Shown: positions 1,297-31,652, counted from the first letter of the stretch. The stretch is DNA of 64,000 bases from Candidatus Culexmicrobium cathedralense (GCA_025061115.1 JANZKC010000001.1:672001-736000), one strand, 5' to 3'. Numbers and translations: made by a program. The notes: generated by a model from the sequence alone, not told the origin.

Positions 1297-2985
1297 CTAT
1301 GCCAACAACATAAAGAGGGGAGCTGGAATTGCTATAAAATCTTTATTTCTATAAAATTCCATACCTGCATAGACCAGTATTCCTCTAACCTTTAGCTGTT
1401 TACTTAATCGAACAAGTTTCTTTATATGATCACTATCAACTTTATTACCGGAATAGACTTCTATTGGAATAAGTCTTCCCTTAACATCTATTAGAAAATC
1501 TATTTCTCTACCAGGCTTCGACTTAAAATAGAACATTTTCCTTTTCAATAATCTAATATCCTGAATAATCTCTAAGGAAAAAATCATGTGAGCAATATTG
1601 CTTGCAACAACCATCTCTACAATAACGCCTCTCCACTCACTCAATCTACTCAAGACCAGAGAATATGGATCGCTACTTCCAGCACTTATAGCCTTGAAAG
1701 CATAGAACATCAGGGGATCCCAAAAGTAGAATTTTCTAGGACTCCTCAAAGGAGATTTACGCTTGCTAAAATCCTTTAATTTTCCTACTTCAATTAAAAC
1801 AAAGGCGTCTACAAGGTAATTCAAATATTGTCTGACTGTATTATGTGAAATTCCAAGCTTATTAGCCAATTTATTATCACTAATTTCCTTAACTGGAACG
1901 GCTTCAAAGGGTCCTCTTGGAGCCTCCAAAAGTTGATAGAGAATATCATATAGTGTATTTTCATTTAACCTCCACTTCATTGCATCCTTCACTGCAAGAT
2001 CTACAAAATCCAAATAAACACTAGGATGTATCCTCCCAAGAGTTAAGAACTGTCGAACTGCAAGAGGAAAACCTCCAGTTAGAAGGTAATCTTCAAAGTA
2101 TGCATAAAGCTCATTTAAGTAAGTTTCAGCCATCTCTAAAAAAGGCGGTATTCCACCATCCAGCCTAGTAAGCTCATTAAAGGCATCCAATCGCCTCTCA
2201 ACCTTCAAAAACTCTTTACTAATAAATAAACTTCTAATATCACGCTTACCAGCCAACATTTCCCTATAATATGCATATTCAGAAAACTTCATTGGAAGGA
2301 GTAATTTATCATTACCCCCCTCCAACATCACACCTTTCCTTAAGCCAAGAGTCTCAGCACCCTTCCTAACATCTAAGCTATGACTCCCAGTAACCAGCAA
2401 TTTAACATGGTTCCTAGTTAGAAGGCCAGAATCATATAAATCCTTAACAGCAAGTTGCCAATTCTTCAAACTACTAACCTCATCAAGAAAGATAAAAGTA
2501 TCACCAGGGCGATCCCTCCGCCTAATAATGAAATCTCGAATCACGTTAGCCAAGCCATTAACCCCACCCAATCCAGCCCTATCACAACGTATATAAGCTA
2601 TCTTCAAAGGATCAATTCGATTTAACAAAAGCTCTCTAATCAAAAGCTTAATCAAAGTAGTCTTTCCCACACGCCTAGGACCCCTCAAACTTACAAGAAC
2701 ATATTTCCCCTCAGCCTCAAGAAAATTCTTCCTTAAAAGATAGAGAAGACGCGGCGTCCAAATCTCACTAATCCTCAAAACCTTACCCGGACTCTTAAGC
2801 TCACTAATATGAGGATCACGCTCACCCATCACCTCAGTCAACGGAATCCTCAAACGCCTCACAATATCATCTCTAGAAAGACTCTCCGCCTCAACAGTTT
2901 TCATTAAATCCTCTAGAAGGCTTAGGAAATCAGGCCTCCACCACCAATTATCTTCAACTAGAAATGAGATTGACAAGTTTATCAT
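1297..2985 (-). CDS. AAA+ ATPase (AAA_14/DUF4143 type) with HTH and C-terminal nuclease-like domain
   Basis: Walker A GPRRVGKT, Walker B FIFLDE, VTGS, YLLTGGFP, HTH NKLANKLGISHNTVRQYL, C-terminal EIDFL...IPIEV. Confidence 0.85.
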   Translation of the reverse strand: MINLSISFLVEDNWWWRPDFLSLLEDLMKTVEAESLSRDDIVRRLRIPLTEVMGERDPHISELKSPGKVLRISEIWTPRLLYLLRKNFLEAEGKYVLVSLRGPRRVGKTTLIKLLIRELLLNRIDPLKIAYIRCDRAGLGGVNGLANVIRDFIIRRRDRPGDTFIFLDEVSSLKNWQLAVKDLYDSGLLTRNHVKLLVTGSHSLDVRKGAETLGLRKGVMLEGGNDKLLLPMKFSEYAYYREMLAGKRDIRSLFISKEFLKVERRLDAFNELTRLDGGIPPFLEMAETYLNELYAYFEDYLLTGGFPLAVRQFLTLGRIHPSVYLDFVDLAVKDAMKWRLNENTLYDILYQLLEAPRGPFEAVPVKEISDNKLANKLGISHNTVRQYLNYLVDAFVLIEVGKLKDFSKRKSPLRSPRKFYFWDPLMFYAFKAISAGSSDPYSLVLSRLSEWRGVIVEMVVASNIAHMIFSLEIIQDIRLLKRKMFYFKSKPGREIDFLIDVKGRLIPIEVYSGNKVDSDHIKKLVRLSKQLKVRGILVYAGMEFYRNKDFIAIPAPLFMLLA

Positions 2986-3013
2986 CCAATCTTGTCAATA
3001 AACTGACAAGATA
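2974..3013. repeat. 40-bp direct repeat copy 1, with palindromic core ATCTTGTCA-N6-TGACAAGAT
   Basis: 36/40 identical to 5824-5863; overlaps the ATPase start codon and abuts its TATA box. Confidence 0.85.
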
Positions 3014-3304
3014 TATAAATCTTACTCAACAACTCACAATTACAACACCACAAACCAAGCCAGTTTATCAATAAGCTCTTCCAATAGCTTATCAACTCTC
3101 TCAACCATCTCTTTAATATCTCTAAGCCCCCTCAAAAGCTCTAACAAACATAAGTAAAACACCGTCAATCAAGCATATATAGCTCAAACTTTTGAAACAA
3201 TCTGAAAGATTAAAATAAAAAATAAAATATTATATCTCAAATGAAATCATTATTCACAAGAAAAAGAATGCCAAAATATAAAAATAAATTAATAATTAAA
3301 TTTT

Positions 3305-3988
3305 ATGGGACTAAATATGAGCTCAGGAGCACGCCATGTAGTTATAGAGATGATTTCAGATAAACTTGGCTTTCCCTTCAATGAAGAAGAACTTTCTCCT
3401 AAAACTCGCAGGCAAATTGGAATAACATCCAAAAAAGTAGAGGAACTGACACATTTATTAGAGTTAAAAACTTCTTATGAAAGTAATTCGACGTCCTACT
3501 TCCTATACAGTTTCATAGCTGGGTTTTTCGGAGCAATACTCCTAATACCAGCGGCCTACAATCCACCCGAGCTTTCTTACCCTTTTACTATAATGAGCTG
3601 GCCATGCTTAGGAGCCTCATTCATTCTCTTTTGGAAAGCAATTGCAGACCATAATAGATCGAATGAAATTAAATCTAAGATCAATGCCCTAGAGGACACA
3701 ATCCTTGAAGAAGTCTCACATTTAGCTGATCTAGTTAACGCTGAAATCTCACTACTATACGAGTCTCGTATAAGGCCTACAATTAGACATGTCAGCATAG
3801 ATTTTGCAAAGATAATGGAGGTCGCCAAAAATCTAGGAATAACGCTTGAGACCATCGAATGCCCACATTGCGGCGGATCCCTAAAGCTACCGAAAACAGG
3901 CGACTACCTTAAATGCCCGTATTGCGGCAAAACAATAAAAGTCATAGATGTCTTTGATAAATTAAAAGAAATTTTAAGCAGCATCTGA
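3305..3988 (+). CDS. Two-TM membrane protein with C-terminal zinc ribbon
   Basis: Two hydrophobic segments, coiled coil, CPHCGG...CPYCG. Confidence 0.75.
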   Translation: MGLNMSSGARHVVIEMISDKLGFPFNEEELSPKTRRQIGITSKKVEELTHLLELKTSYESNSTSYFLYSFIAGFFGAILLIPAAYNPPELSYPFTIMSWPCLGASFILFWKAIADHNRSNEIKSKINALEDTILEEVSHLADLVNAEISLLYESRIRPTIRHVSIDFAKIMEVAKNLGITLETIECPHCGGSLKLPKTGDYLKCPYCGKTIKVIDVFDKLKEILSSI

Positions 3989-4051
3989 ACGTTCGATCGA
4001 TAATAAAACATTGCAATCTCAAAATAGCAAGAAACACTTGGAAGATCAAAA

Positions 4052-4264
4052 ATGACCTACGGTAAAGCAATAATTAGATATAAAGGAGCACACCCCATAC
4101 TCTTCACATTCACAGCACTATCCGCAGGAATAGGAGCAATACGAGGATATAAAACAAAAGGTATTACAGGTGCGATAATAGAAGGCGCCTTAGGAGGAAT
4201 AGTTGGAGCCATCCTTGGCGGCATACTAGAAACACTACCAAAAGCAGTAGTTATTAAATACTAA
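4052..4264 (+). CDS. Small glycine-zipper membrane protein
   Basis: GAIIEGALGGIVGAILGG GxxxG repeats. Confidence 0.55.
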   Translation: MTYGKAIIRYKGAHPILFTFTALSAGIGAIRGYKTKGITGAIIEGALGGIVGAILGGILETLPKAVVIKY

Positions 4265-4525
4265 GAAAACTCTATAAACTGTAAAAATTAAAATAGCATC
4301 GAAGATTTACCACAGTCAATTACGTGGAATAGTAAAAGAGGGTGATTGGGAGAATGAGCTAAATAGGCTTAATGAATTCTTAGTTAAGATAGCTAAAGTG
4401 ACGCAGAAGCGAGGTATGTCTAGAAAGCTTCACATAATATGACTATTGCTTGACTTAACTGGATAATTTAACGAACTTAACTTATATAACGCATTGCTAC
4501 ACTACTACATATAGGTGTAATTGAC

Positions 4526-4840
4526 ATGGAAGCAATTTCACAGCACTTCCTACTAAGATATATGACAAGTACTCTAGGTGAAAGAAAGACGTTCGACAGG
4601 TCATATGTAGTTGATAGTGCACGAGGCACTACTGACACCTTACACTTCACTCAAATATCACTAGATGAAGAGGCAGGAGCGCTATATATAAAGCTGAAAA
4701 ATGGAAAAATAGCAAAAACATTGGAAAGTGAAGATCTAATGCTAATAGACTTAGATGATGAAGGCAAAGTTATTGGAATAGAAGTTTTAACAAGCAATAA
4801 AGAAATATTGAGAGCACTATCAAGAACTCTTAGGCCATAA
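4526..4840 (+). CDS. DUF2283-family protein (putative antitoxin)
   Basis: DEEAGALYIKL...IDLDDEGKVIGIEVL signature. Confidence 0.75.
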   Translation: MEAISQHFLLRYMTSTLGERKTFDRSYVVDSARGTTDTLHFTQISLDEEAGALYIKLKNGKIAKTLESEDLMLIDLDDEGKVIGIEVLTSNKEILRALSRTLRP

Positions 4841-5113
4841 AGTTATAAGCTTGAAACAACGAGCAGTCTTTTCTAAAACAACCTTCAACACCACCTTCTC
4901 ACTAACTTCAATTATGGCGTGATATCTAGGACCTTCAACACCCTTATGCTTAACATCTTCAACAAGCTTACCTTGACTAAGCTGGGACTTTAAAACTTCA
5001 AGAAGATCTTCAAAGTTTAAGTATTGGGAAATATAACGATTTTCAAACCTGTAAATGAAATGATCAGTCCACTGCAAAGTTTCACAAGTCATCGGATCAT
5101 CCTTACTTAGCAA
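4820..5113 (-). CDS. DUF4258-like / RelE-BrnT-fold putative RNase toxin
   Basis: WTDHFIYRFENRYI start and LKVVLE...KLITLWP end fit this family. Confidence 0.55.
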   Translation of the reverse strand: MLSKDDPMTCETLQWTDHFIYRFENRYISQYLNFEDLLEVLKSQLSQGKLVEDVKHKGVEGPRYHAIIEVSEKVVLKVVLEKTARCFKLITLWPKSS

Positions 5114-5618
5114 TCTTTACCAGTACGAGTGGAGACCAGCGAACATTGTACACTGGGTTGCCGTCATTGTCCCGATATTCAAGAGTTCTACTCACAATGG
5201 TTGGCTCTATCTCAACAATTACCCTATACTTTAAGCCATCACTCCCAAAATACAAAACTTCTTCAACAGCCTTTTCAGCTTCAACTATATCGACAAACTC
5301 CCATATCTCCAAGTTTTTCAAATGCTCACCGCCTCTTGGAACAGGCTTATTTGAAACTCTCACCCGCAACTCCCTTGGAGCAGAAGCCGCTATAACAACA
5401 TTAAAACCCACACCCAACGACAAACCTGTGGGCGACTTCTCCAACTCATCTATCTTCGTAATAGTAACTCTGACAGTCAATACAGACTTATCGGACAAGA
5501 CAACATAACCAGGCTTGTTCCTTAAAACTTCAAACTTAGCAATATTGCTCAAAACATTCACCACTGAAATAATCGAAGAGAATACATATATAAAGTAAGC
5601 GAACAAAAGCTCTAACAT
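5103..5618 (-). CDS. Hypothetical protein
   Basis: 171-aa ORF overlapping the start of the next gene; no family recognised; true start may be internal. Confidence 0.6.
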   Translation of the reverse strand: MLELLFAYFIYVFSSIISVVNVLSNIAKFEVLRNKPGYVVLSDKSVLTVRVTITKIDELEKSPTGLSLGVGFNVVIAASAPRELRVRVSNKPVPRGGEHLKNLEIWEFVDIVEAEKAVEEVLYFGSDGLKYRVIVEIEPTIVSRTLEYRDNDGNPVYNVRWSPLVLVKIAK

Positions 5619-5823
5619 CTAAATAAACAAACATAAATTGTATCTTAGGTTAATATCCAGCGAAATAAACCGAAAGCAATCACTAAGCATCACCACTTCA
5701 AACCGTCACTTCAATTATGACCGATATAAAATGAAGTTAGGGTTACGCATTAATTACCGTTCTAAAGAACATGCTGTACAAAGAGAATATAGTTTCAATA
5801 AGGCGAAAGAACTGAACCACCCT

Positions 5824-5863
5824 CAAGTTTAACATCAAATTTTGTCAATAAACTTACAAGATA
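5824..5863. repeat. 40-bp direct repeat copy 2
   Basis: 36/40 identical to 2974-3013, exactly 2850 bp downstream. Confidence 0.85.
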
Positions 5864-6040
5864 AAGTTACTGATATATCCACGCAAAATCAAGGCTCAAC
5901 GCTATTATAAGTCAAAGCCTGTAATAACCAGTACTTAAGAAACAATTATCAAAGAGTGCCCAGCGATATACTCGTAGAGTATAGTGAAAACCTCTGTAAA
6001 GAAGCCCACCTGAATTCAGCCTACAAGCCGGTGAGGCTGC

Positions 6041-7050
6041 TTGAAAAAGAAAGCTGCTGTAATCGGCTTAGATGGGCTGTCGTGGAATTATCTTGACAAG
6101 CTCATCAACAATGGCATTATGCCCTATACGAAAACACTTCTAAACAAGGCATTCAAGACGGAGCTGGAGTGCATACCGCCAGTCACACTACCATCTTGGA
6201 CGAGCATAATGACTGGAGTAAATCCAGGCAAGCACGGAATTTTCGGCTTCTTCACATACGATAAATCAACTTGGAAGCAGATCTTAACATCAGCCTATCA
6301 CGTAGAATACCCTAGAATTCACGAAATGCTTTCAATGAACGGTGCAAAGAGCATAATCTTCAACCCAATGCCCGACTACCCCATCATACCCGCAAGAAAC
6401 ACAATACAAATAAGCAACCTATTCTTCACACCGAAACCCGTCTCCTACCCAGCTGAAGCCTACAAGAAATTCTTTGGAGAAGAAAACCCTAAGGAGGTCA
6501 AGAAAGATGCGACGTGCAACTACTTGAACAAATACATACACGTTATCGAGCTGCATGAAGAGGCTGTCGATAAAGCCATAAATGAAGACCACACCCTCCT
6601 ATGGATTAACCTAAACATCCCCGACAGCCTATTCCACAGATGCCCAAAATAATAGAAACCGACGAACTACTCCCAAGCGAGAGAAGAATATTCAGAGAAG
6701 TAGACAAGCTAATCAAATCACTAAGAGAAACCCACGAAAACCTAGTCATAGTCTCCGACCACGGCTACGCAACATACAACAAGCTAATATCCGTCAACGA
6801 CATCCTCATAAAACACAAACTAGCAAACGCAACCAAAATAAACAAAATAAGCGAGATAAGCGACTACAAAAAACCTAAAAGACATGCAAAGCCAAAGTCC
6901 ACTAAGATAATAGATGTCAACCCAAAAATTTACAGTCTAATCAGAAAACTACACCTATCACGCATCACCCGCTCAACCCTAAACATAATCTCCACAATAG
7001 TAGGACGAAAAATAAGGGTCAAAACGTCAAGATGGGTACGAGGTGTGTAA
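6041..7050 (+). pseudogene. Alkaline phosphatase superfamily phosphodiesterase, frameshifted (~6645) and 3'-truncated
   Basis: VIGLDG, PPVTLPSWTSIMTGVNPGKHGIFGF in first ORF; IVSDHGY in second frame. Confidence 0.8.
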
Positions 7051-7444
7051 AGTGAGAGTTCTTATTTGCCACCGTAGTCTAAATAGTGCAGGTGGCGGTG
7101 AGAGGGTAGCGCTTCACATCATTAAGTTAGCTCAGGACATGGGCTTCGACGTCGAGCTAGCAACGACTGAGCCAACAGATTGGGATCACGTTCAGAACAT
7201 CATAGGGATTCAGCTTGATAGGATCCCTAAGGAGCATAGCTTACTGCCATTTAGGTTGAGGGCCTTCGGGATCTACCAGCGCTTCCTAACTGGGGTTCAC
7301 GCTAGCAGGCTTAGAAGGAGGTCCAACTTGACAGTTAATACTCACGGGGATGTCATGGCGCTTCCAGCAGACATGACCTACCTCCACTTCCCCGTCTTAG
7401 CTTACTGGAGGAGGGGGGAGCTTAAGCTATACAGCTCCTTCTAG
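7043..7444 (+). pseudogene. GT4 (ALG11-like) glycosyltransferase, N-terminal fragment
   Basis: GGGERVA and YLHFP motifs; stops at 133 aa without the catalytic C-terminal domain. Confidence 0.75.
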
Positions 7445-7541
7445 ACTTATAGGCTCCTTAACATGACATGTAGCATGAACGCTATAACCATGTTCACTTA
7501 CCTAACGCTGCAATTCAATCCTATTAACAAACTCACAATTT

Positions 7542-7967
7542 TCACTTGCATTTCTGAATTAATTCCCCTAAATCTACCACCTTTACCAGTTTTTCAGCCT
7601 TTTCCCTAAGTTTTCTATCCTCTGTTACCAGTATTAAGTTATTCTTTTGAGCCAAGACTATGTATGAGGCATCATAAGTAGTTATCCCCAGCTCTAAGGC
7701 TTTTACTAAAACATCAGCTTCGCATGGATGGACATCTAGTATTTCCAAATATTCCAATGCACTTTTAAACACCTCTATAAATTCCATAGCTTCTTCATAA
7801 GTCAAATTCTTAGTTAAATATGCTTCCTTCCATATAGCGTTTAAAACTTCATAAATCGCCAATTGCTGAGTATAACTACCATAAATAAGAGCCACACGCT
7901 TAAGCTTTAACACATAAACCAAGGAAGATGCATCAAACAAGTATTTATCAGCCAATCTTGAAATCAC
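7542..7967 (-). CDS. vapC: VapC PIN-domain toxin
   Basis: YLFDAS, YEVLNAIWK, ITTYDASYI, LVTED. Confidence 0.9.
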   Translation of the reverse strand: MISRLADKYLFDASSLVYVLKLKRVALIYGSYTQQLAIYEVLNAIWKEAYLTKNLTYEEAMEFIEVFKSALEYLEILDVHPCEADVLVKALELGITTYDASYIVLAQKNNLILVTEDRKLREKAEKLVKVVDLGELIQKCK

Positions 7968-8203
7968 CTACCCCTATCCTCCCTAATACTATCAACAATC
8001 CTATGAATGTCAATCTTATCTAGAACCCTCGCCATCTCATCAAGCCTCCTACGCAGTTCATCCAATTCACGCTTCCTAACCTCCTCCTCCAATGCCCTCC
8101 TCAAAACTTCTGAAATCCTTATCCCCAGCCTCTCAGCCCTCTCCTTCAATTCCCTCCTCACCTTAGTTGAAATAGTAACATACCTACCCATAATTACCAC
8201 CAT
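7964..8203 (-). CDS. vapB: VapB antitoxin (RHH)
   Basis: YVTISTKVRRELKERAERLGIRISEVLRRALEEE; overlaps vapC. Confidence 0.85.
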   Translation of the reverse strand: MVVIMGRYVTISTKVRRELKERAERLGIRISEVLRRALEEEVRKRELDELRRRLDEMARVLDKIDIHRIVDSIREDRGR

Positions 8204-8233
8204 AAAAGTAGTAAATAAAAGTAGTAAATAAAA
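8202..8233. promoter_or_regulatory. 13-bp tandem repeat, probable vapBC operator
   Basis: ATAAAAGTAGTAA twice plus ATAAAA immediately upstream of vapB. Confidence 0.55.
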
Positions 8234-8412
8234 CTTTCACCAAAATACCAAATCAACAATCATACAAGCAGCCATAAACTCGCCTACCCATCTCCACAAA
8301 AACCAATAAAAGGTAACAAAATGAAAATCATAGTTGATGACTTAAAAAACAACTCATACCCATAATAATCACCATACAGGCAATATTAGCGGTTATTCTA
8401 TCGTTAAGTGCA

Positions 8413-9198
8413 TTGAATGTTAAGCATTACCAGAAGATATACAGAACAACTGTTAAAGTTGCATTCAGAATAAAGTACGACTTCACCATATCGATAATAG
8501 CGTTAGCATTACTCACTGCAATCTACTTAGCTTGGAAAAGAGAATTTCACGTGCTACTTTTAACAGCTTTGATATCGATTTTAGCCTACTTCATGAGAAG
8601 CTTTAGAGATTCAGTGATAGTAGCAACATTAATGCTCTCGGCATTCACAGCAGTAAGAATGAAGAAGAATGAAGACTGCGCATTCTGGGCATTAGCTTTT
8701 TGGACTAGCTTGGAGATGGTTACATTATTGCACTGGGGAATATTAAAGCCAATGTTGAATGTGGATGTACTTCAGACTTTAGCCAACTTCGAGCACAAAA
8801 TTTTCAGCGTAACAGCAATCCTAACACTCCCAACTCCACTAACCATACTGTTCATGTGGATTCTAAAGCCAATAGCAAAACAGTACGTACAGTCAATAAA
8901 AGATGTTGTTCAGCTAATTAGAGGAGAAACTGAAGAGCAGGTAAGAAGTTCAGCCCCACTAAAAATTGGCTGGATGCCGATACTCGCAGTCGCGGCAATA
9001 TTTTCGATAGTGACGGCAATCTACCCATACTGCTTGAGCAATGCTACAACAGTAAAGCACATGCCTCTTTTAATACATTCAATCCTAACAGTATCAGCAT
9101 TCATTCTGGTTTTGAAGGCAGTTGGAGATAAGGAGTGGGCCACCCTCTCAGCCCAACTAACAGCAGGAATCATGACGGTATCAGACATGTACGCTTAA
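8413..9198 (+). CDS. Polytopic membrane protein, probably a degraded fragment
   Basis: Multiple hydrophobic helices; N-terminal coding appears to start in another frame near 8321. Confidence 0.5.
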   Translation: MNVKHYQKIYRTTVKVAFRIKYDFTISIIALALLTAIYLAWKREFHVLLLTALISILAYFMRSFRDSVIVATLMLSAFTAVRMKKNEDCAFWALAFWTSLEMVTLLHWGILKPMLNVDVLQTLANFEHKIFSVTAILTLPTPLTILFMWILKPIAKQYVQSIKDVVQLIRGETEEQVRSSAPLKIGWMPILAVAAIFSIVTAIYPYCLSNATTVKHMPLLIHSILTVSAFILVLKAVGDKEWATLSAQLTAGIMTVSDMYA

Positions 9199-9359
9199 AA
9201 TACTGGCAAACACTTTTAATGTAATATCTTAACTAGAGAAGATAGACTAAATATGAAGAAAATAGTTCAATAGTACCTTATTATTGTCAAATATTTATAA
9301 TTATTAAAATAGTTAACCTTAAGTATTTGTTTTCAAAAATATCATGGTGTTACTAAATC

Positions 9360-23624: not shown

Positions 23625-23719
23625 CCATGTTTGTATGAGGCTCCATCCCGACTAATGTGTAGTGTTCGAAGCTTTGTTTTTGAGTGTTATGTGCTAGTTT
23701 TGTGGTGGGCTCCCCGTGC

Positions 23720-24001
23720 TTAGCTCCGTCGTGGCTTTTCGTGCTTACGCTTTCGTTCTTCTCGTATAAAGTAGGCTAGCTGGAGTAGTACTCCTGCTAC
23801 TAGATTATAATAGGCGTATTCGGCTAGCTTGTTGGCCGTGAGCTCGTTTCCTAGTGCTAGGTAGGCGGCCGCGGTGATGAGTAGTATCATGAATGTTATT
23901 ATGAATGGTGCTCCCCAATTTTCTAGGAAGTAGGTTAGGTCTAATTTGTAGATTCTTTTGCTACTTAGTTTTATTTTTATGATTAGTTTTCTTTTGCTCA
24001 T
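23720..24001 (-). CDS. Small two-TM membrane protein
   Basis: NWGAPFII...ANKLAEYAYYNLVAGVLLQL. Confidence 0.7.
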   Translation of the reverse strand: MSKRKLIIKIKLSSKRIYKLDLTYFLENWGAPFIITFMILLITAAAYLALGNELTANKLAEYAYYNLVAGVLLQLAYFIREERKRKHEKPRRS

Positions 24002-24010
24002 TTGACTTTT

Positions 24011-24949
24011 TTACTTTGTGTGATGTATGTATTTTAGTTTATTTATTGTTTGCCTTAATCCTTCTTTTAGTGTTGTTTTTGCTTTGAAGCCTAGTTCTTG
24101 TTGTGCTTTGGTTGTGTCTGCGTGGCTGTGTTTTATGTCTCCTTCTCTTGGTTTTGTATATATGATTGGTGAGTTGGTTTTTGTTAGTTGTTTTATTTGT
24201 TGTGCTAGTTGGTTTATTGTTGTTGGTTTTCCTGTTGCTATGTTGTAGGTTCCATTTCGTTTTGCTTCTAATGCTGCAATGAATGCTCTTGCTGCATCTT
24301 TTACGTATATGAAGTCTCGTGTTTGTTTTCCGTCTCCGTAGATTGTTAGTGGCTTCCCGGCGAGTGCGTTGTTTATGAATTTTGTTATTACTCCTGCGTA
24401 TTGGTTGTGGGTTTGTCTTGGTCCGTATGCGTTGAATATTCTTAGTGTTGTTGTGGTTATGTTGTGGAGGTGGTTGTATGTTTTTAGGTAGTTTTCTGCT
24501 GCTATTTTTGTTGCTGCGTATGGTGATAGTGGGTTTGGTGGGTGGCTTTCTTTTATTGGGAGTTCTTTTGGCTCGCCGTATACTGCTGCTGATGATGCGA
24601 ATATTATTTGTTTGACTTTGTTTTTGGCTGCTGTTTTTAGTAGTTTTAGTGTTCCTGTTGCGTTTACTTGGTGGTAGAGTAGTGGTTTCTTAATTGATTC
24701 TTCTACGCTTATTAGTGCGGCTAGGTGCATTACTGCGTCTGCGTTTTTTAGTGCTTTGTTGAGTGTTTTTGTGTTGCGTATGTCTCCTTTGATGAAGGTT
24801 ATTTTGTTTTTCTTGATGTGGTGGGCTATGTTTTCTAGTTTGCCTGTGGTTAGGTTGTCGAGGACTGTTACTTCATGACCTTTTTCTACTAGTGCGTCGA
24901 TTAGGTGGCTTCCGATGAATCCTGCTCCGCCGGTGACTATAATCTTCAT
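24011..24949 (-). CDS. NAD-dependent nucleotide-sugar epimerase (UDP-glucose 4-epimerase family)
   Basis: TGGAGFIG, SSAAVYG, YAATK, FNAYGPRQ, RDFIYV. Confidence 0.93.
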   Translation of the reverse strand: MKIIVTGGAGFIGSHLIDALVEKGHEVTVLDNLTTGKLENIAHHIKKNKITFIKGDIRNTKTLNKALKNADAVMHLAALISVEESIKKPLLYHQVNATGTLKLLKTAAKNKVKQIIFASSAAVYGEPKELPIKESHPPNPLSPYAATKIAAENYLKTYNHLHNITTTTLRIFNAYGPRQTHNQYAGVITKFINNALAGKPLTIYGDGKQTRDFIYVKDAARAFIAALEAKRNGTYNIATGKPTTINQLAQQIKQLTKTNSPIIYTKPREGDIKHSHADTTKAQQELGFKAKTTLKEGLRQTINKLKYIHHTK

Positions 24950-25037
24950 TTTAATTTGGTATTGATCTGCTTTTCATGGTTATCTTCTTCATTGGGATTT
25001 GTTTATTTGTTGTGAGGATTTTGTTGTTGCTGGTGGT

Positions 25038-25535
25038 TTAGGGATCTTTTATTATTTTTATGAATTGGTTTAGTGTTTGGGATTGTTGTTGTGCGGTTTT
25101 TAGGTTTATGTTGTTTGTTAGTGTTTTTGCTGTTTTTAGGGATTTTACGTATTGTTTTCCTTTTCTTCTTAGTATGTTGTTTAGGTATGATTCTGGGTTT
25201 TCAAGGTTTTCTGGGTTTGGTATTCCCATTCCTGCTAGGATCCATGATTCTATCGATCTCTTAATTATAATTGTATGGATGTTTGTGTGATTTATGTTTT
25301 TGATGACTTTTGATAGGTTTTTCTTTATGGTTTTTTCGGGGTGTTTGTGGAGGTCTTTTAGTATTATTATTTTTGAGTATGGTTTTCTTGTTAGTGCTGC
25401 TTTGATTAGTCGTATGGCTTTATTTGGTCTATTTCCTCTCATTAGTAGAATTTTTGCTTTTACGTTTAGTTTTTCCGTGATTTTTTGGATGACGCCTTTA
25501 TCGCTTGGGCCTTCTACGAGTATGAGGATTGACAT
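25038..25535 (-). CDS. TOPRIM-fold protein (DUF4276-like)
   Basis: ILVEGPSD, IILKDLH, SIESWIL. Confidence 0.7.
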   Translation of the reverse strand: MSILILVEGPSDKGVIQKITEKLNVKAKILLMRGNRPNKAIRLIKAALTRKPYSKIIILKDLHKHPEKTIKKNLSKVIKNINHTNIHTIIIKRSIESWILAGMGIPNPENLENPESYLNNILRRKGKQYVKSLKTAKTLTNNINLKTAQQQSQTLNQFIKIIKDP

Positions 25536-25537
25536 TG

Positions 25538-26686
25538 TTATTCGGCTTTTGGTATTCCGCCGATTAGACCTGAGTACCAGGCTTCTCCGAGGGTTCCGCC
25601 TTCTTCGAGCAGCTTCTTTACAGCGTGTATTTCCTCCATGCTTTCGAGCTTCTTAATAATTGTGGCTGTATTTGGCTTTTCAACTATGTAGACTTCTTCG
25701 GGTTTTACATGGTCCAGTAAGTATGGTGAGTGTGTGGTGATTATTACTTGGCATGGTGCTTTGCGGGTTAGATCGATTAGTGTTTCTAGGAGATGTGGGT
25801 GTATGCAGTTTTCGGGTTCCTCAAAAACAGCTAAACTTGGCTGTGAATACAGGGCTGTTATGTAGGCAAGCATTCTGAGAGTTCCATCAGAAATATTTGC
25901 AGGTCTTAATGGTTCGGATAGGCCTTTAACGCGTAGCCATAACTCAACAGATGTGCCTTCAATATGAGGAATAATCTCCTCAACTTCGGGTATGAAGCTT
26001 CGAAATGCATCTTCAATAGATGTGAAAGCTCTTCTATTCTCAAGATATAAGTGTAGAAGTATGCGGGCAAGATTATTTCCATAATAACCTAGAAAAGTGG
26101 GAGCTTCAATACTTGATCGACCCCGTATCTTCTCAGGAGAAAAGGAATGCACAGTGATATTACGTAGTAGACGAGCTAATTCATGTAATTCATTAACAGC
26201 ACTTAATGGTAAAAAGGACAATAAGCTTCTAAACAACCGTCTATTGTTGAAAAATGGAATATGTTGAGATGGAGGAGTTGCCTTCTCCATTTTCCCTTGA
26301 ACTGTGAGGAAAATACTTTTTGGGGGCATGGAATATGTGCCTTCTTGTTCGAGGGCTATTTCATCATTAATCCACGCTTTTTCGATGTACCCGTTGGCTG
26401 TGAGTGTTAATGTGTATTTGATGTTGCGGTTTTCTATTGTAGCTTCTATTTCTAACTCTGTCTTGGCTGCTTCGTCGAATCCGTATGCGAGGTCTTTGAA
26501 GCTTCGGTAGCCTGATAGTATGGGGAAACCGTTTTTTGCGTGGTTTTTGATGAGTTGTAATGCTTTGGCAATATTGCTTTTGCCGCTAGCGTTTGGTCCT
26601 ACTAGTATGTTTAGTTTGCCTAGTTTCATTTCTGCGTTTTTGAGGCTTAGGAAGTTTTTGATGTGTATTTTGGTTATTGATGGCAT
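25538..26686 (-). CDS. ABC-type ATPase (AAA_21/SMC-like)
   Basis: IKNFLS, GPNASGKSN, signature ISDGT, Walker B FEEPENCIHP, H-loop ITTHSP. Confidence 0.9.
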   Translation of the reverse strand: MPSITKIHIKNFLSLKNAEMKLGKLNILVGPNASGKSNIAKALQLIKNHAKNGFPILSGYRSFKDLAYGFDEAAKTELEIEATIENRNIKYTLTLTANGYIEKAWINDEIALEQEGTYSMPPKSIFLTVQGKMEKATPPSQHIPFFNNRRLFRSLLSFLPLSAVNELHELARLLRNITVHSFSPEKIRGRSSIEAPTFLGYYGNNLARILLHLYLENRRAFTSIEDAFRSFIPEVEEIIPHIEGTSVELWLRVKGLSEPLRPANISDGTLRMLAYITALYSQPSLAVFEEPENCIHPHLLETLIDLTRKAPCQVIITTHSPYLLDHVKPEEVYIVEKPNTATIIKKLESMEEIHAVKKLLEEGGTLGEAWYSGLIGGIPKAE

Positions 26687-26797
26687 TATTTGTTTATTTG
26701 ACGTTTTTAAATATAATGTTATCTCTATTTTCTGGGAGGAATTTCTTGTTCTTTTGAAGTTTGGGTTGTCTTGTTGGATTGTTTTTTGGTGTTTTGG

Positions 26798-27203
26798 TTA
26801 TAGCCATATTCTTGTTATTTCTTTGATTTTGTCGTATTCTTTGTCTTCTGATGCTATTTTGGTTATGTTGTTTGTTGTTATTGTTGCGATGTGGAGGGCG
26901 TCTGAGGGGTTGATGTTGTGTGTTTTGAGTATTTCTGCGGCTTTTTGGTATTCTTTTTCGTTGAGGGGTAGGATTTCTATGTATGGGAGTACTATGGATT
27001 CAATGAATTCTATGGTGATGTTGTATGGGGCGTTGTATCTTTTCTTAGAGATGTAGAGGAGTTCGTCTAGGACTAGTACGTCCGTGTATGCTTTTGTAGC
27101 TTAGTAGTAAGTCTAGGTAGAAGTTTTCGTATATTTTTCTCCATTCTGGGGTTTTTATGGTGTTTAGGTATATTAGTAGGTTTGAGTCTATGAAGATTTT
27201 CAT
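26798..27203 (-). pseudogene. vapC: VapC PIN toxin with a 1-nt frameshift (~27100)
   Basis: MKIFIDSNLLIY..., then YTDVLVLDELLY...PSDALHIAT...IASEDKEYDKIKEITRIWL*; 406 nt; ATGA overlap with the antitoxin. Confidence 0.8.
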
Positions 27204-27466
27204 TGTTCGAATTCCTTTTCTAGGTAGGTTTTAGCTTGCTCGCCGGGTTTGGGCTCTATTGAGTTTGGTATGTTTTTTATTCGGTTTAGGTGTTTCTTTA
27301 ATGCGGTGCTTAGTTTTTCTTTGTCGATTTTTCTTACTGGTTTGAGGAGGATTCCGTCTTTGATTTCTACTGTTACTTCGTCTCCTTCGTTGATGCCGAC
27401 TGCGTCTCTGATGGCTTTTGGTATGATGATGTATCCTTTTTTGCCGACTTTTAGCTTTAGAGTCAA
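27200..27466 (-). CDS. AbrB/MazE-type antitoxin
   Basis: KVGKKGYIIIPKAIRDAVGINEGD. Confidence 0.9.
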   Translation of the reverse strand: MTLKLKVGKKGYIIIPKAIRDAVGINEGDEVTVEIKDGILLKPVRKIDKEKLSTALKKHLNRIKNIPNSIEPKPGEQAKTYLEKEFEQ

Positions 27467-27602
27467 ACTTGGTCTGCCTCGAGCTAGACTTGGCTAACCT
27501 CTCATTTAAGTATTGCTGTGGCGTGTTTCTTGTTTGTTGTTGGTTGGAGTTGTGGTTTTGAGTATGTTGGAGGGTGTTGTGTGGGTGGGTTTGTTTAGTT
27601 TG

Positions 27603-27974
27603 TTATGGGGGGTTGGGGGTTAGGCGGTATATTCCTTCGGTTAGTCCTAGCCAGAATATGTATGTGGGGTCTTGGAGCCATTTTTTGAGTTGGGGGCACC
27701 ATTTGAAGGCTCCGCTTTTCTTAAATTGGGTGAGTATGTGGCGGGCTCTTTCGAGTCCCGCCTTTACTATTTTGAGGGTGGGGGTTAGGATGAGTTTATT
27801 CATTATTTCTGTTAGGTGTGAGATTACGTCTGGGTTTATTATTTTTCTTTTGATTTTTGCGTAGGTTAGGGCTGCTCGGTAGAATGCTTTTTCTAGTTTG
27901 GATAGTTTTTTCCAGTTTCCGTTTCTTAAGCCTTTTTTCAGGGTGTTTGCGAGCTCAGTGTAGTAGATGGGCAT
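27603..27974 (-). CDS. Conserved hypothetical basic protein (paralog of 23271-23624)
   Basis: GLRNGNWKKLSKLEKAFY...WLQDPTYIFWLG. Confidence 0.7.
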   Translation of the reverse strand: MPIYYTELANTLKKGLRNGNWKKLSKLEKAFYRAALTYAKIKRKIINPDVISHLTEIMNKLILTPTLKIVKAGLERARHILTQFKKSGAFKWCPQLKKWLQDPTYIFWLGLTEGIYRLTPNPP

Positions 27975-28157
27975 ATTTTACCCTCTAATTATTATTAGTA
28001 TGTTTGTTGATTTAAAAGGGATTGGGTTGCATGATTTTATTAGTCAATGATTTTGCTGTTCGTATTTATGTTTCAGTTTTTATAATTGTGTTTGCTTGTT
28101 TTTTCTGTTTTTGTGTGTTATTATTGTGTGGTTGAGGTTTTGTTATAAAGAAGGTTG

Positions 28158-28499
28158 TTATTGTTTTGTTTCTTCTTTTGTTTTGGTTTCTTTCTTTTCT
28201 TCTTTGGGTTTTTCTTCTTTGGTTTCTTCCTCTTTTGTTTCTTCTTCTAGTTTTTTGAGTTCTTCTTCTATTTCTTTTTCTATTTCTTCTATTGGTTTTG
28301 GTGGTGGTGTTGTTGCTAGGGTGTATCCTATCCAGGCTATTATTGTGAGTACTCCTCCTACTGCTATTAGGGCTGTGAGCTTCATTACGATGAGGTCTAG
28401 TCCTGGCCAGGTTGGGAAGAATAGTAGCCATATGTATATGATTATTCCTATTATTGATCCTGCGAGTAGGCCTGCTCCTATTATGGCGTCTTTTTGCAT
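28158..28499 (-). CDS. Two-TM membrane protein with acidic KEE-repeat tail
   Basis: WIGYTLATTPPPKPIEEIEKEIEEE followed by KEE repeats; GGAGG RBS. Confidence 0.8.
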   Translation of the reverse strand: MQKDAIIGAGLLAGSIIGIIIYIWLLFFPTWPGLDLIVMKLTALIAVGGVLTIIAWIGYTLATTPPPKPIEEIEKEIEEELKKLEEETKEEETKEEKPKEEKKETKTKEETKQ

Positions 28500-28589
28500 T
28501 TTTGTTCCTCCTTGATTTCGTTTTTTAGTTATTGTTGTTTTGTTATAAAACGTTTACTGGTTTGTTTTGTTGTTTGTTATTTTAAGTGG

Positions 28590-29921
28590 TTATTTTGGTT
28601 TGTGTTGAATTGTTTTTAGGTAGTATATTGCTGCTAGTGTTGCTGCTATTGCTATTACTGTTATGGTTATGATTATGGTTGTTGTTGGTGTGATTTCTGG
28701 TGGGGGTGGTTGTTTTACTGTTATTGTTATTGTGTTTGATGTTGTGTTGTCTGCTTTTGCTTGTATTTGGTATGTTCCTTTTTGTTGGAATGTTATTGTG
28801 AATGTTGTTTTTCCGTTTGGTTGGGTTGTTTTTGTTTGGGTTGGTGTGTTGTTTATGTATAGGGTTATTGGGGTGTTTTTCATGGGTGTTCCGTATTGGC
28901 TTATTGCTATTGCTGTGATTGTTATTGTTTGTTCTGTTTGGATTTCTAGTTTGTCTGCTCCTAGCATTAGTATTGTTACTTTTGGCGGGGGCAGTTTGAC
29001 TGTGATTGTTATGGTGTTGGATGTGTAGTTGTTTGTTTTGGCGTAGATGGTGTAGTTTCCTTGTGTGTAGAGGGTTATGGTGAAGGTTGTTTGTCCTTGG
29101 TTGTTGGTTGTTTTGGTTTGGTGTGGTGCGTTTTGGATGTATAGGGTTGTTTGGATGTTTGGTTGTGGGTTTCCGTTTTGGTCTGTTATTGTGGCTGTTA
29201 TGTTGATTGGTTCGGCTGGCTTTGCGATTGTTTTGTCGGCTTCTATTTTTATTGTGAGGATTTTTGGTGGTGGGGGTGGCTTGGTTACCGTGATCGTTAT
29301 TGTGTTTGATTTTATTGTGTCTGCCTGCGCGTATATGGTGTAGTTTCCTTCTATTTTGAATGTTATTTGGAAGGTTGCTTTTCCGGCTGTGTTTGTTTTT
29401 GTGGTTGTGTTTAGCTGTTGGTTGATGATTAGTTGGACTGTTACGTTTGGCATTGGCTTGTAGGTTTGGTCTAGTACTTGGGCTGTGAATGTTATTGTTT
29501 GTCCGGTTTTTATTGTTGTTGTGTTTGCTTGTAGGTTTATTTTTGTTATTTTTGGTGGTTGGGGTGGTGGGGGTGGTTTTGTTGTTATTGTGATTGTGCG
29601 GGTTGCTGTTGTTTTGGTTGTTACGTCTTTTGCGTATAGGGTGTATGTGCCTGTTGTCCAGTCGGTTGATGTTTTGAGTTTGATTGTTAGTTTGCCTTCG
29701 TTGTCTGTTGTGGCTTCCCATACCCATATTGGTCCTGTTGGGCTGTTTAGTTGGAGCATTACGTGTCCGTTTGGTGTTGCTCCTGTGATTGTTATGGTTA
29801 TGGTTTCTTCTAGGTAGTAGGTTGACTTGTCGGTTGTGAGTGTGAATGTTGTTTGGGCTTGTAGGGGGTTTAGGATTAGGGTTAGAATTATGAGGAGTGG
29901 GATTGCGTGTTTATTTTTCAC
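28590..29921 (-). CDS. Cell-surface protein with tandem Ig-like (Big_1-type) domains
   Basis: Signal peptide, about four beta-rich domains (ITxTA...DQ.G.P...T...G...F.IT...G.Y.I.A) separated by poly-Pro linkers, C-terminal TM anchor. Confidence 0.85.
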   Translation of the reverse strand: MKNKHAIPLLIILTLILNPLQAQTTFTLTTDKSTYYLEETITITITGATPNGHVMLQLNSPTGPIWVWEATTDNEGKLTIKLKTSTDWTTGTYTLYAKDVTTKTTATRTITITTKPPPPPQPPKITKINLQANTTTIKTGQTITFTAQVLDQTYKPMPNVTVQLIINQQLNTTTKTNTAGKATFQITFKIEGNYTIYAQADTIKSNTITITVTKPPPPPKILTIKIEADKTIAKPAEPINITATITDQNGNPQPNIQTTLYIQNAPHQTKTTNNQGQTTFTITLYTQGNYTIYAKTNNYTSNTITITVKLPPPKVTILMLGADKLEIQTEQTITITAIAISQYGTPMKNTPITLYINNTPTQTKTTQPNGKTTFTITFQQKGTYQIQAKADNTTSNTITITVKQPPPPEITPTTTIIITITVIAIAATLAAIYYLKTIQHKPK

Positions 29922-30040
29922 AATTTCACCGCATCAATTATATTTGAAGTTTTTTGGTTTGCGTGTTTTTATTAATGATGTTTCAGTGCTTTAAAATTTT
30001 TGGTATTTTAATTATAGCTTCATTGAATTTCTGCGCATAT

Positions 30041-31426
30041 TTATGGGTGGTATGCTTTTTTGCCGCTTATTGATATGTATATTGTTTTGTTTGGTATTTT
30101 TGCTTGGGTGTGTAGGTTTCTTGCGTCTATGATTATTGTTGGTTTTTTGGCGTTTGCGACTAGGTCTTTTAGGTTTAGGTTTTTGTATTGGTTGTGGTCG
30201 GTTGCTATTATGATTGCGTCTGCGTTGTGGGTTGCGTTTTGGAGTGTTGTTAGTGGTATGTTGAGTTTGTTTAGTGTTGGGTTGCTTTTTACGTGTGGGT
30301 CGTGGACTGCTATGGTTGCTCCTTTTGTTTTGAGTATTTTTGCTATTTCTATTGCTGGTGATAGTCTTGTATCCGAAACATTACCTCTGAATGCTGCTCC
30401 TAGGATGGCTATTTTTGTTTTTTCTATGGGTTTTCTGAGTTTTTTGAGTTCTTGGGTTAGTAGGTTGACTGTGTAGGTTGGCATGTTTTTGTTTATTTGT
30501 CTGGCTGTTTTGGTTAGTGGGGTTTGGATGCCTAGTTTTTTGGCTGTGTTGATTATGTATTGGGGGTAGATTGGTATGCATGCTCCTCCTACTCCGCATC
30601 CTGGTATGTGGAGGTGGCAGTATGGTTGGCTGTTGCTTGCTTTTCTTATTTCCATGAAGTCTAGGTTTAGGGCTGCGCATAGTTTTGCTAGTTCGTTTGC
30701 TAGTGCGATGTTTACGTCTCGGTAGACTCCTTCGAATAGTTTTGCTAGTTCTGCTGCTGTTGGGCTGCTTAGGGTTATTACTCCTTTTTTGGCGATGCAT
30801 TCGTATAGGGCTGCTGCAGCCTTAGCGCTTTTGGGGCCGATTCCGCCTATTATTTTGGGGTAGTTTTCTTCGATGTCTTGGAGTGCTCTTCCTACCATTA
30901 TTCTTTCTGGGCTGAATGCTAGTCCGAATTGTTGTTCAGCTTTTAGTCCGCTTTGCTGTTCTAGGATTGGTTTTGCAAGTTCTTCTGTTGTTTTGGGTGG
31001 TACGCTGGATTCGATTATTACTAGGTCTCCTTCTTTTAGGCCTTGGGCTATTGCTGTTAGTGCTGATTTTAGTGCTGATAGATCTGCTTCTCCTTCGGGG
31101 GTGGTTAGGGTTGGTACGGTTATTAGTTTGACGTTGGATTGTTTGGATGCTTCTGCTCCATCGGTTGTTGCTTTGAACCTTTCTTTTTCAATGTATTCTA
31201 AGAGAATTGGTTTGATTTGGGGTTCGTCTGTGAATTGGAAGTTTTTTGAGTTTAATGCGTTTACCCAGTCTTGTCGTATGTCTACTCCTATTACTTTTGC
31301 TCCTGCTCTTAGCCATGCTGCTGCTAGTGGTAGGCCGACTCTTCCTAGGCCGTAGATCGATGCCACGATTCTTCCGCTTTTTAGGTTTTGCTTTAATTGA
31401 TTGGGGGTTAGTTTTAGGAGGTTCAT
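30041..31426 (-). CDS. Nucleotide-sugar dehydrogenase (UDP-HexNAc 6-dehydrogenase, WecC/WbpA family)
   Basis: GLGRVG, ESSVPP, FSPER, KLFE..YRDVNIALANE, GVGGACIP, D.R.SP. Confidence 0.9.
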   Translation of the reverse strand: MNLLKLTPNQLKQNLKSGRIVASIYGLGRVGLPLAAAWLRAGAKVIGVDIRQDWVNALNSKNFQFTDEPQIKPILLEYIEKERFKATTDGAEASKQSNVKLITVPTLTTPEGEADLSALKSALTAIAQGLKEGDLVIIESSVPPKTTEELAKPILEQQSGLKAEQQFGLAFSPERIMVGRALQDIEENYPKIIGGIGPKSAKAAAALYECIAKKGVITLSSPTAAELAKLFEGVYRDVNIALANELAKLCAALNLDFMEIRKASNSQPYCHLHIPGCGVGGACIPIYPQYIINTAKKLGIQTPLTKTARQINKNMPTYTVNLLTQELKKLRKPIEKTKIAILGAAFRGNVSDTRLSPAIEIAKILKTKGATIAVHDPHVKSNPTLNKLNIPLTTLQNATHNADAIIIATDHNQYKNLNLKDLVANAKKPTIIIDARNLHTQAKIPNKTIYISISGKKAYHP

Positions 31427-31652
31427 GGGGTCACCTATTAACTTTTTTTATCGTAAAACGAGTTAAAAATTGAGTTATTTAAGTGTTGCGCCATGAAAAA
31501 CTTGTGAATTTACTTGGATGCCACCATGAATTGCCGGGGAGCTTTGATATTAAGTGAGTTAAGATTCATTGATTCTGCTTAAATTGCATTTCTTGCGGCA
31601 TGTCATTAAACTATATAATTTTGGTGTATTCATGTAATTTTGCGCCGGTGAA

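Follow-up and report, generated by a model that had tools for sequence, protein, structure and literature searches.

Why should some ten kilobases of a cell-surface sugar gene cluster carry almost only A and C at the silent sites of their genes? The question is raised by a 64,000-nucleotide stretch of DNA from the hot-vent archaeon Candidatus Culexmicrobium cathedralense (GCA_025061115.1, JANZKC010000001.1:672001-736000), hereafter the window, which is C1:672001-736000 of its own genome, G000 (a 1.98-Mb assembly in 25 contigs). Within it lies a block at 20978-31426 (10,449 bp), in which every supported gene (Pfam) is on the minus strand and the plus strand has a G+T content of 0.714 at a GC content of 0.392 (genome, 0.41). 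A first-pass annotation, made from the sequence alone, had reported a strand asymmetry that inverts across this region, and its hand counts proved exact on recount: 58/60 G+T at 22801-22860, an uninterrupted G/T run at 22798-22843 (46/46), 46/60 A+C at 6781-6840 and 42/60 A+C at 2821-2880. In 1-kb windows, plus-strand G+T rises from 0.35-0.49 (2-13.5 kb) through 0.48-0.54 (14-20.5 kb) to 0.57-0.81 (20.5-31.5 kb).

The skew at 21-32 kb of the window is far beyond chance: the genome-wide mean G+T is 0.470 (sd 0.052; n=1,946 windows of 2 kb); the corresponding stretch, C1:693001-704000, averages 0.714 with a peak of 0.779 and is the longest extreme run of the genome in 2-kb windows. Among 1,448 open reading frames (ORFs) of at least 150 aa genome-wide, five deviate from 0.5 by at least 0.45 at fourfold-degenerate sites, all of them in the block; at a deviation of at least 0.40 the number is eight, five of them inside the block. 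When the 11 Pfam-supported minus-strand genes of the block are pooled, 1,062 of 1,113 fourfold sites are A or C (95.4%; A 789, C 273, G 28, T 23), and gene by gene the coding strand has A at 0.45-0.80, C at 0.18-0.49 and G and T at 0.00-0.07 each; the coding-strand skews at these sites are -0.81 (GC) and +0.94 (AT). Coding-strand A+C climbs from 0.57-0.76 in the first two codon positions through 0.80-0.95 in the third to 0.87-1.00 at fourfold sites. Twofold sites give 467/503 (0.928) for A/(A+G) and 360/387 (0.930) for C/(C+T), and the near-identity of the two fractions implies that both transitions are hit equally. Among the matches listed for the genome, three complex G/T-only 36-mer runs occur; all lie in the block, two of them in the gene for a Big_1 surface protein. 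The many false antisense ORFs that had been claimed are also present: of 46 ORFs of at least 60 aa overlapping 20.0-32.6 kb, 22 lie on the plus strand in 20978-31426, atop Pfam-supported minus-strand genes, and four further ORFs in the same list are out of frame on the minus strand, all 26 being judged spurious by position, with no Pfam search of them.

The bias tracks the physical strand and peaks at neutral sites. Its independence of gene orientation, as first proposed, holds: the minus-strand genes at the left of the window (104-1171 and 1297-2985) have plus-strand fourfold G+T of 0.39 and 0.34 against 0.33-0.35 in their plus-strand neighbours. To the right of the block, a plus-strand epimerase-like gene (31653-32534) has a fourfold G+T of 0.75 on its own strand (T 0.52, G 0.23), with A/(A+G) of 5/44 and C/(C+T) of 13/64 at twofold sites, which is the same physical polarity as the block. 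The first-pass annotation had added that its reading would fail if the skew vanished at synonymous sites once coding strand was controlled; fourfold sites are instead the most skewed. Across the two contigs compared, fourfold A+C is 0.636 in plus-strand and 0.454 in minus-strand genes of C1, and 0.673 and 0.401 in those of C2.

The bias is also visible in the proteins, whose composition had been said to shift. The summed fraction of Thr, Lys, Asn, Gln, Pro and His is 0.349 in the UDP-sugar dehydrogenase of the block (30041-31426, minus strand; Pfam), the same in its 99%-identical top hit (P0001), 0.319 in a 79%-identical homolog and 0.226 (sd 0.032) among distant ones. For the NAD-epimerase (24011-24949, minus strand; Pfam, E 8e-76) it is 0.417, with 0.423, 0.39 and 0.422 in homologs at 95, 88 and 74% identity, 0.35 and 0.33 at 69%, 0.313 at 64% and a mean of 0.281 (sd 0.038) at ranks 11-120. 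The shift in composition goes in step with relatedness. A property intrinsic to these genes is ruled out, as the dehydrogenase homologs in genomes G006-G009 have T-rich fourfold sites (T 0.46-0.69, with 0.69 in G009) and M24 peptidase orthologs are recoded in opposite directions in G004 and G002.

The locus recurs in relatives, namely G003 (same family, other genus), G004 (same genus as G003) and G002: contigs G003:C20, G004:C16 and G002:C45 are syntenic with 24-39 kb of the window. The same extreme skew is seen in a 5,795-bp metagenome contig, L017, which is 76.6% identical to window 34594-28803; its dehydrogenase and Big_1 genes have fourfold A+C of 0.96 and 0.93, and its ortholog of the opposite-strand gene 31653-32534 has T at 0.74 and G at 0.15. 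From the dehydrogenase outwards to a GT4 gene, plus-strand fourfold G+T runs 0.96, 0.75, 0.66 and 0.49 in the window and 0.96, 0.89, 0.84 and 0.76 in L017, so that the flippase (0.84) and the GT4 fragment (0.76) of the latter are more skewed than those of the window (0.66 and 0.49). Nine syntenic genes of mixed orientation on G004:C16 have plus-strand G+T of 0.03-0.23 over 12 kb; its orthologs of the window flank at 34125-39498, at 0.04-0.23, can be set beside those of G002:C45, at 0.61-0.73 (0.44-0.73 over the GT4 side as a whole). A further contig of G002, C82, holds orthologs of a DUF4276/AAA_21 gene pair of the block with values of 0.61-0.99, and a plus-strand gene there has a coding A+C of 0.15. 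In G003:C20, which matches window 24-37 kb (epimerase at 64% aa identity, small membrane protein, dehydrogenase at 67%, epimerase-like gene, flippase at 45%, GT4 at 67% and two flank genes), the skew is at background level (0.44-0.94, most genes 0.5-0.8).

Between G003 and G004, DNA identity is 65-81% across the locus, against 73% for an ordinary region; by this measure the locus is not more foreign than its genome at large. We read the block as the variable core of a surface-glycan cluster passed down vertically; the locus is ancestral, and its skew recurs across lineages. The first-pass annotation would have counted donor homologs with the same bias against its reading, and homologs elsewhere do carry it, with a qualification: L017, G004 and part of G002 share it, but they are syntenic orthologs and not donors. 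The left part of the block stands apart in that window 18-24 kb (searched from 18,001), with the glycosyltransferase genes GT1 (20978-22081, minus strand; Pfam) and GT2 (22091-22798, minus strand; Pfam) and a minus-strand nucleotidyltransferase gene (Pfam), has no DNA match in G001-G004 except one short low-complexity hit, and may be accessory. G001, of the same genus as the window and 57% complete, gave no locus match, which is not evidence of absence.

Extreme composition is also found elsewhere in these genomes. A scan for G/T-only 36-mers in 62 genomes of the class found complex runs, among the matches listed, in G000, G002, G003, G004 and G017, in one to three places each; no genome has more than 38 overlapping matches, those of G007, G035 and G046 are homopolymers or simple repeats, and 16 matches, including those of G016 and G015, are outside the list. 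Patches of 5-8 kb were flagged in G004:C29 (0.72-0.94), G003:C7 (0.08-0.23) and G002:C86 (0.04-0.30), with ordinary genes in both orientations. On this evidence extreme skew is a trait of the family beyond the glycan locus alone, which shows it in at least three lineages. Two of these patches hold M24 aminopeptidase orthologs that have been recoded in opposite senses (L161 in G004:C29, 2413-3531, coding A+C 0.94; L162 in G002:C86, 444-1577, coding G+T 0.74), with K, N, I and T in the A+C version facing R, G, V and A in the G+T version. Within G000, single extreme genes (skew 0.87-0.95) stand amid moderate neighbours at C1:360277-361212, C1:39873-40625, C2:458341-458847, C1:312271-313521 and C1:343470-344378, some of them opposing the polarity of their own domain.

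All this is superimposed on an asymmetry of chromosomal scale. In 25-kb bins, plus-strand fourfold G+T is 0.24-0.49 for both gene orientations along C1:75-675 kb and similar along all 531 kb of C2, a skew that spans more than 1.1 Mb of G000 at about 0.3-0.4. The left domain, C1:75-685 kb, averages 0.369 over 458 ORFs, with an sd of 0.114 where the binomial sd is 0.043, and ORFs to the right of C1:706 kb average 0.492 (n=106). Twofold A/(A+G) and C/(C+T) in the left domain are 0.64 and 0.62 in plus-strand genes and 0.42 and 0.36 in minus-strand genes, so that here too the purine and the pyrimidine transition are biased alike. The window straddles the border between this strongly skewed domain and an unskewed one, and the extreme block, of opposite sign, starts 4 kb to the right of the border. 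Sampled 20-kb pieces (L104-L123) of G003, G006 and G009 show the same orientation-independent skew at contig scale, so that the trait belongs to the family and order. Probably the leading strand is the G+T-rich one, to judge from the ribosomal-protein operon and from the 260 of 431 C2 ORFs that lie on the G+T-rich strand. The block skew is of the same keto/amino type as the chromosome-wide skew of the family. As a separate observation, the block adjoins the chromosomal skew switch and all its genes are head-on, a circumstance that may or may not bear on its intensity.

The structure of the block is mosaic and its edges are sharp. At the left edge the step falls inside the 3' end of GT1 (20978-21340, minus strand), where plus-strand third-position G+T in 90-nt blocks reads 0.73, 0.63, 0.77 and 0.77 before rising to 0.83-1.0; the upstream gene at 20410-21000, which overlaps GT1, has 0.40-0.67. 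Within the AAA_21 ATPase gene (25538-26686, minus strand), the centre (25630-26420) is unskewed, with third-position blocks of 0.37-0.73 against 0.87-0.93 at the ends. The G002 ortholog has the same unskewed centre, and over codons 211-300 the two proteins are 0.8-1.0 identical while third positions are 0.63-0.73 identical. That third-position identity is well above the expectation for saturated unskewed sites, and we read it as a recent exchange that is still unconverted; no paralog able to donate this centre was found in the genome. The earlier idea that skew records residence time fits such a mosaic, since the unskewed centre is the part most recently shared with G002.

How, then, did the block acquire its composition? 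We consider it somewhat probable that a persistent strand-specific excess of two transitions explains it, C>T and A>G on the plus strand, equivalent to G>A and T>C on the minus strand. Weakly constrained sites would be driven to G or T on the plus strand and to A or C on the minus strand, proteins would be dragged towards Thr, Lys, Asn, Gln, Pro and His, and unskewed stretches would be recent recombination imports awaiting conversion. Two established routes lead to such a signature. Hydrolytic deamination of single-stranded C and A is the accepted reading of mitochondrial and of leading/lagging asymmetries, and one route to the block might be deamination of C and A on a plus strand left single-stranded unusually long or often. 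The second might be G.T-mispair errors during repeated one-direction copying of the minus strand; keto/enol tautomer mispairing was raised in the paper describing GRINS (PMC8256042), a class of skewed bacterial regions. Either route would need a standing asymmetry in the handling of the two strands of the block.

Several observations suggest that the bias is mutational and still acting. Of 178 fourfold sites that the dehydrogenases of the window and L017 share, 45 differ, 35 of them by an A/C difference and three by a transition. Silent sites are near saturation, to judge from the less skewed flippase, where only 65 of 188 shared fourfold sites agree; the dehydrogenase nevertheless stands at 0.96 in both lineages, which argues that it is not a decaying relic. 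A strain fragment, L056, 98.6% identical to the window, has 16 differences, of which, polarized by L017, seven are G>A or T>C and four are the reverse on the coding strand, where G+T makes up only about a quarter; this is a hint of ongoing bias. Apart from this argument, the differences from X2 contigs, unpolarized, comprise 98 A>G, 90 C>T, 79 G>A, 115 T>C, 43 G>T and 48 T>G, with 3-15 of each other type (40 of the 585 places are listed by position). The log-odds at twofold sites are ~2.6 in the block and ~0.45 in the background, about six times stronger, and background replication alone is therefore insufficient.

A number of points weigh against a persistent mutational excess. The polarized L056 sample amounts to 11 informative transitions with an outgroup that is saturated at silent sites, and the ORFs behind the genome-wide comparison were taken greedily as the longest non-overlapping frames and are not gene-finder calls. 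The switch offers no source for the local intensity, in that no intergenic region, nearby Cdc6/Orc1 gene or distinctive repeat (among those listed) was found there. Fork direction alone is insufficient, for a fixed origin predicts an equally extreme left flank of opposite sign, and 0.40-0.68 is observed. The sharp edge, with a step completed within ~400 bp inside a gene, and the lone extreme genes of either polarity fit gene history equally well. Spacers within the block have G+T of 0.65-0.80, below its fourfold sites (0.95 and above), whereas pure mutation predicts equality unless the spacers are constrained. Finally, the long-conserved ribosomal-protein operon is only moderately skewed, and residence alone is thus insufficient for the extremes.

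The serious rival is history, in which the composition would have been gained in another lineage, or at another position with stronger or steadier bias, and brought in by recombination, inversion or transfer, to decay or persist where it now lies. The step inside GT1 and the mosaic AAA_21 gene are what it would leave behind, as are lone extreme genes of either polarity amid moderate neighbours (C1:286242, 312271, 343470, 360277), and GT1, GT2 and the nucleotidyltransferase gene are extreme while lacking DNA matches in the relatives beyond the low-complexity hit mentioned above. Contigs of other sequencing runs often break within the block, as expected for a strain-variable locus, and the genome-wide skew of G002 is stronger (8.4% of 119 sampled ORFs beyond 0.15 or 0.85). 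Against it, synteny across three genera, at ordinary divergence, extends over the right half of the block and the adjoining flank, and the window and L017, both at 0.96 and near silent saturation, differ almost only by A/C changes. Moreover, no genome-wide G/T-only donor appears, among the matches listed, in the 62 genomes of the class, and G004 carries an extreme locus in a weakly skewed genome (elsewhere 0 of 151 ORFs lie beyond 0.15 or 0.85, with a mean deviation of 0.087, over 200 kb sampled from its six largest contigs). On balance we regard an origin by history as unlikely, though it deserves to be taken seriously.

The first-pass annotation itself proposed a local bidirectional process, with forks or exposure of single-stranded DNA moving outward from the island centre. 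The polarity is right for an origin, as it had claimed: cumulative (G+T)-(A+C) along the 843-kb contig C1 reaches its lowest point at 688,890 (16,890 of the window), and the G+T-rich strand is probably leading, by the gene orientation cited above. The supposed left arm, however, is the last 12 kb of a background domain of ~600 kb, and the two sides are unequal, at about 0.35 on the left and 0.95-0.99 on the right, with the flank just left of the block unskewed to mildly G+T-rich. Nor are mirror-image arms seen at the switch, the sequence of values being ~0.37 to the left, 0.95-0.99 in the block and ~0.49 beyond 34 kb; the extreme part is over within 3 kb and the right arm is finished by 34 kb, with no physical-strand skew further out. 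The switch itself (16625-16900) is the junction of abutting ORFs at 12839-16624 and 16631-17692, without an intergenic region. The four Cdc6/Orc1 matches of the genome include none at a skew switch, the nearest ending ~38 kb off at C1:648,917, where the skew is unchanged. The repeats listed for 1-36 kb, 20 direct families and 25 inverted pairs, include nothing recognizably origin-like; they are low-complexity G/T-rich sequences and weak pairs. A local origin at the island centre is therefore improbable in our estimation. The 1261-aa minus-strand ORF adjoining the switch (12839-16624) has no match in Pfam, NCBIfam or PHROGs.

Selection has a little less to recommend it still. It might act on strand composition, by way of fewer palindromes, evasion of restriction or less structure in single-stranded DNA or RNA, or on surface proteins rich in Thr, Pro, Lys and Asn. 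The block does have 360 palindromic 4-mers, where two equally long control stretches have 623 and 632, and 86 palindromic 6-mers, where they have 187 and 162, and its Big_1 surface protein is rich in Thr and Pro. But palindromes that are about half as frequent are the arithmetic result of the skew, and restriction-type sites would thin out likewise. Silent sites are the most biased, which excludes an effect at the protein level; opposite-strand genes yield G/U-rich mRNAs, so that no single property of mRNA is favoured; cytoplasmic enzymes equal surface proteins in skew; and the same genes are skewed in the opposite sense in other genera, as in the dehydrogenase homolog of G009. We accordingly hold selection on strand or protein composition to be quite improbable. 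Translational selection was considered separately and is excluded, since highly expressed genes show no preference for A- or C-ending codons (fourfold A+C 0.50 for EF-1alpha, 0.34 for EF-2, 0.26-0.49 for minus-strand genes of the ribosomal-protein operon, 0.65 and 0.58 for thermosome genes).

Transcription of one long, heavily transcribed leftward operon could also produce an asymmetry, and the supported genes at 12.8-31.4 kb are indeed all on the minus strand, and fourfold sites across the genome show a slight A+C excess on the coding strand, of about 0.04-0.05. Known transcription-coupled asymmetries, however, enrich G+T on the coding strand, a sign opposite to that of the block. G004:C16 keeps a single physical polarity over 12 kb of mixed-orientation genes, the GT4 fragment of L017 retains the polarity of the block although it is transcribed away from it, and opposite-strand genes hold the physical polarity in the window, L017, G004:C16 and G002:C82; the minus-strand genes at 12.8-21 kb, for their part, are unskewed. 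These observations make transcription a very improbable cause.

An artefact of assembly or sequencing, which a 25-contig assembly with 7.65% estimated contamination might invite, is hardly credible given the intact reading frames, the strong Pfam matches and the recurrence of the composition in L017, L056, G004, G002 and the contigs of four other runs. The latter, with 30, 29, 22 and 29 of the 30 bins covered, reach across both edges of the block (parts uncovered in the X3-X5 contigs are not evidence of absence), and a contig of one of these runs, X3, spans the left-edge step with 0 differences over 19234-21383. A phage or plasmid was likewise rejected: PHROGs and NCBIfam (19 ORFs each) returned no recognizable phage or plasmid function; a search of viral contigs found no relative of GT1 and three loci related to the epimerase at 27-29% identity, with no close viral relative; and no mobility gene, integrase included, appears in 38 ORFs searched with Pfam and 19 each with NCBIfam and PHROGs, the nearest tRNA being at 42,663.

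Returning to a persistent strand-specific excess, four known kinds of asymmetry or island offer comparisons. Replication-associated asymmetry in bacteria, in which the leading strand is G+T-rich, shares an excess of G over C and T over A on one strand in both gene orientations, in chromosome-scale domains with a switch; the block differs in being far stronger, only 10 kb long and sharp-edged, without a mirror-image arm. The SkewDB abstract calls the usual skew effect 'small, typically around 2.5%' (PMC8941118).

GRINS, the bacterial case, come nearest among known local phenomena. They share local, intense and correlated GC and TA skews, recoded homologous proteins and a tie to recombination or gene conversion. 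They are delimited by mean absolute GC and TA skews above 0.15 that are correlated (PMC8256042), and over 344 windows of 150 nt the block reaches 0.33 and 0.51, with r=0.51. They are also duplicated regions of more than 500 bp and more than 80% identity inside one polyketide synthase (PKS) (PMC8256042). A blastn search of window 20-35 kb against the whole genome returned only the internal repeats of Big_1, at 68-69%, and a low-complexity hit of 125 nt. Nor does the region hold PKS or non-ribosomal peptide synthetase genes; Pfam instead finds glycosyltransferases, sugar-nucleotide enzymes, toxin-antitoxin or defence genes and an Ig-like surface protein. GRINS skew flips sign abruptly along a strand (PMC8256042), whereas the block keeps one polarity over 10 kb of unrelated genes and spacers, and GRINS hosts are bacterial whereas this host is archaeal.

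Animal mitochondria show an asymmetry of heavy and light strands that is attributed to deamination of the strand left single in replication. Shared with the block are C>T and A>G on the exposed strand with the keto/amino segregation that they produce, an A+C-rich coding strand for most genes, the shift in proteins and a near-absence of G at silent sites. The mitochondrial case nevertheless concerns a whole small replicon with known asymmetric replication, and the block is 10 kb of a 2-Mb chromosome in which no origin-tied gradient was found. A genomic island would resemble the block in strain-variable gene content, toxin-antitoxin and defence-like genes and atypical composition, and would be unlike it in that the GC content of the block (0.39) is near that of the genome, there is no integrase or flanking tRNA, and half of it with its flank is syntenic across genera. 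Full-text literature searches found no archaeal locus of this kind described, which does not prove that none is in print.

A bolder idea, which we put forward only tentatively and think rather unlikely, is that this archaeal family practises locus-targeted, strand-specific recoding, a multi-gene, single-polarity counterpart of GRINS. Programmed or habitual exposure of one strand, or error-prone synthesis in one direction, would then take place at the glycan cluster and a few other patches. If so, recoding would push one strand towards a two-letter alphabet, continuously remodelling surface and glycan-building proteins, and the degree of conversion would be a clock of the residence of each gene. 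A second, independent case of simpler geometry may make the mechanism of intense local skews, GRINS included, more tractable.

Other consequences are of more general bearing. The block illustrates the reach of mutation pressure, with the six-residue fraction moved from about 0.23-0.28 to 0.35-0.42 while family signatures stay intact, and the graded conversion of imported segments could date the arrival of genes in a hypervariable surface locus. According to a 2026 survey, archaea are largely without strand-specific mutational skews (PMC12999951). The chromosome-scale skew of G000 and its relatives is at odds with that conclusion; strand skew over hundreds of kilobases together with a near-saturated locus makes a counter-example and a natural system for the study of strand-specific mutation. 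For annotation, skewed regions breed dozens of false ORFs and inflate the DNA identity of orthologs that share the skew.

The remaining features of the window can be given from left to right. Positions 1-12264 are the end of the A+C-rich domain of ~600 kb (C1:75-685 kb), taken as a left arm by the first-pass annotation, with plus-strand fourfold G+T of 0.32-0.39 in both orientations. It includes a plus-strand type I phosphodiesterase-like gene broken into three ORFs (6041-7444; Pfam PF01663 in 6041-6652 and 6640-7050), whose fourfold A+C is itself mosaic, at 0.66, 0.91 and 0.45 across the three; the A+C-rich patch at 6781-6840 falls within the middle piece, 6640-7050. A transitional minus-strand stretch follows at 12839-20977, with the 1261-aa ORF, which has no family, a kinase-like ORF, GT2 genes and an FkbM methyltransferase gene (Pfam, NCBIfam), and weak to mild skew (plus-strand fourfold G+T 0.40-0.68).

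Within the block, all on the minus strand, a 117-aa ORF without family match forms a weakly skewed insert at 23271-23624 (fourfold A+C 0.71; third-position blocks 0.33-0.80). The DUF4276 and AAA_21 ATPase genes form a two-gene module at 25038-26686 (Pfam) that resembles a defence module and is 81% identical in DNA to a module of another genus (L136 in G002:C82, 2689-4339). Next comes a frameshifted PIN/VapC-like frame (26687-27199), read by eye with no family search, which has a G+T of 0.74 and is skewed like the coding genes; its frameshift may mark a pseudogene or an assembly error. An AbrB-type antitoxin gene (27200-27466; Pfam PF04014) lies upstream of it. A gene for a small membrane protein also lies within the block, and the Big_1 gene (28590-29921; Pfam) has three internal repeats of ~290 bp at 28698-29570, 68-69% identical, with Thr/Pro-rich linkers.

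Beyond the dehydrogenase gene, a decay zone at 31427-34045, with a divergent promoter region, the epimerase-like gene and the minus-strand flippase-like gene (32531-34045), shows falling fourfold G+T and gives way to the conserved flank of the glycan locus, GT4 and four more genes at 34125-39498, which is unskewed in the window (plus-strand G+T 0.44-0.49). All that Rfam recognizes in the window is four tRNAs, the fourth of which, at 49984-50082, was missed by ARAGORN; the length of this tRNA and of a 96-nt tRNA-Glu at 61570-61665 leaves room for introns, a usual feature in archaea.

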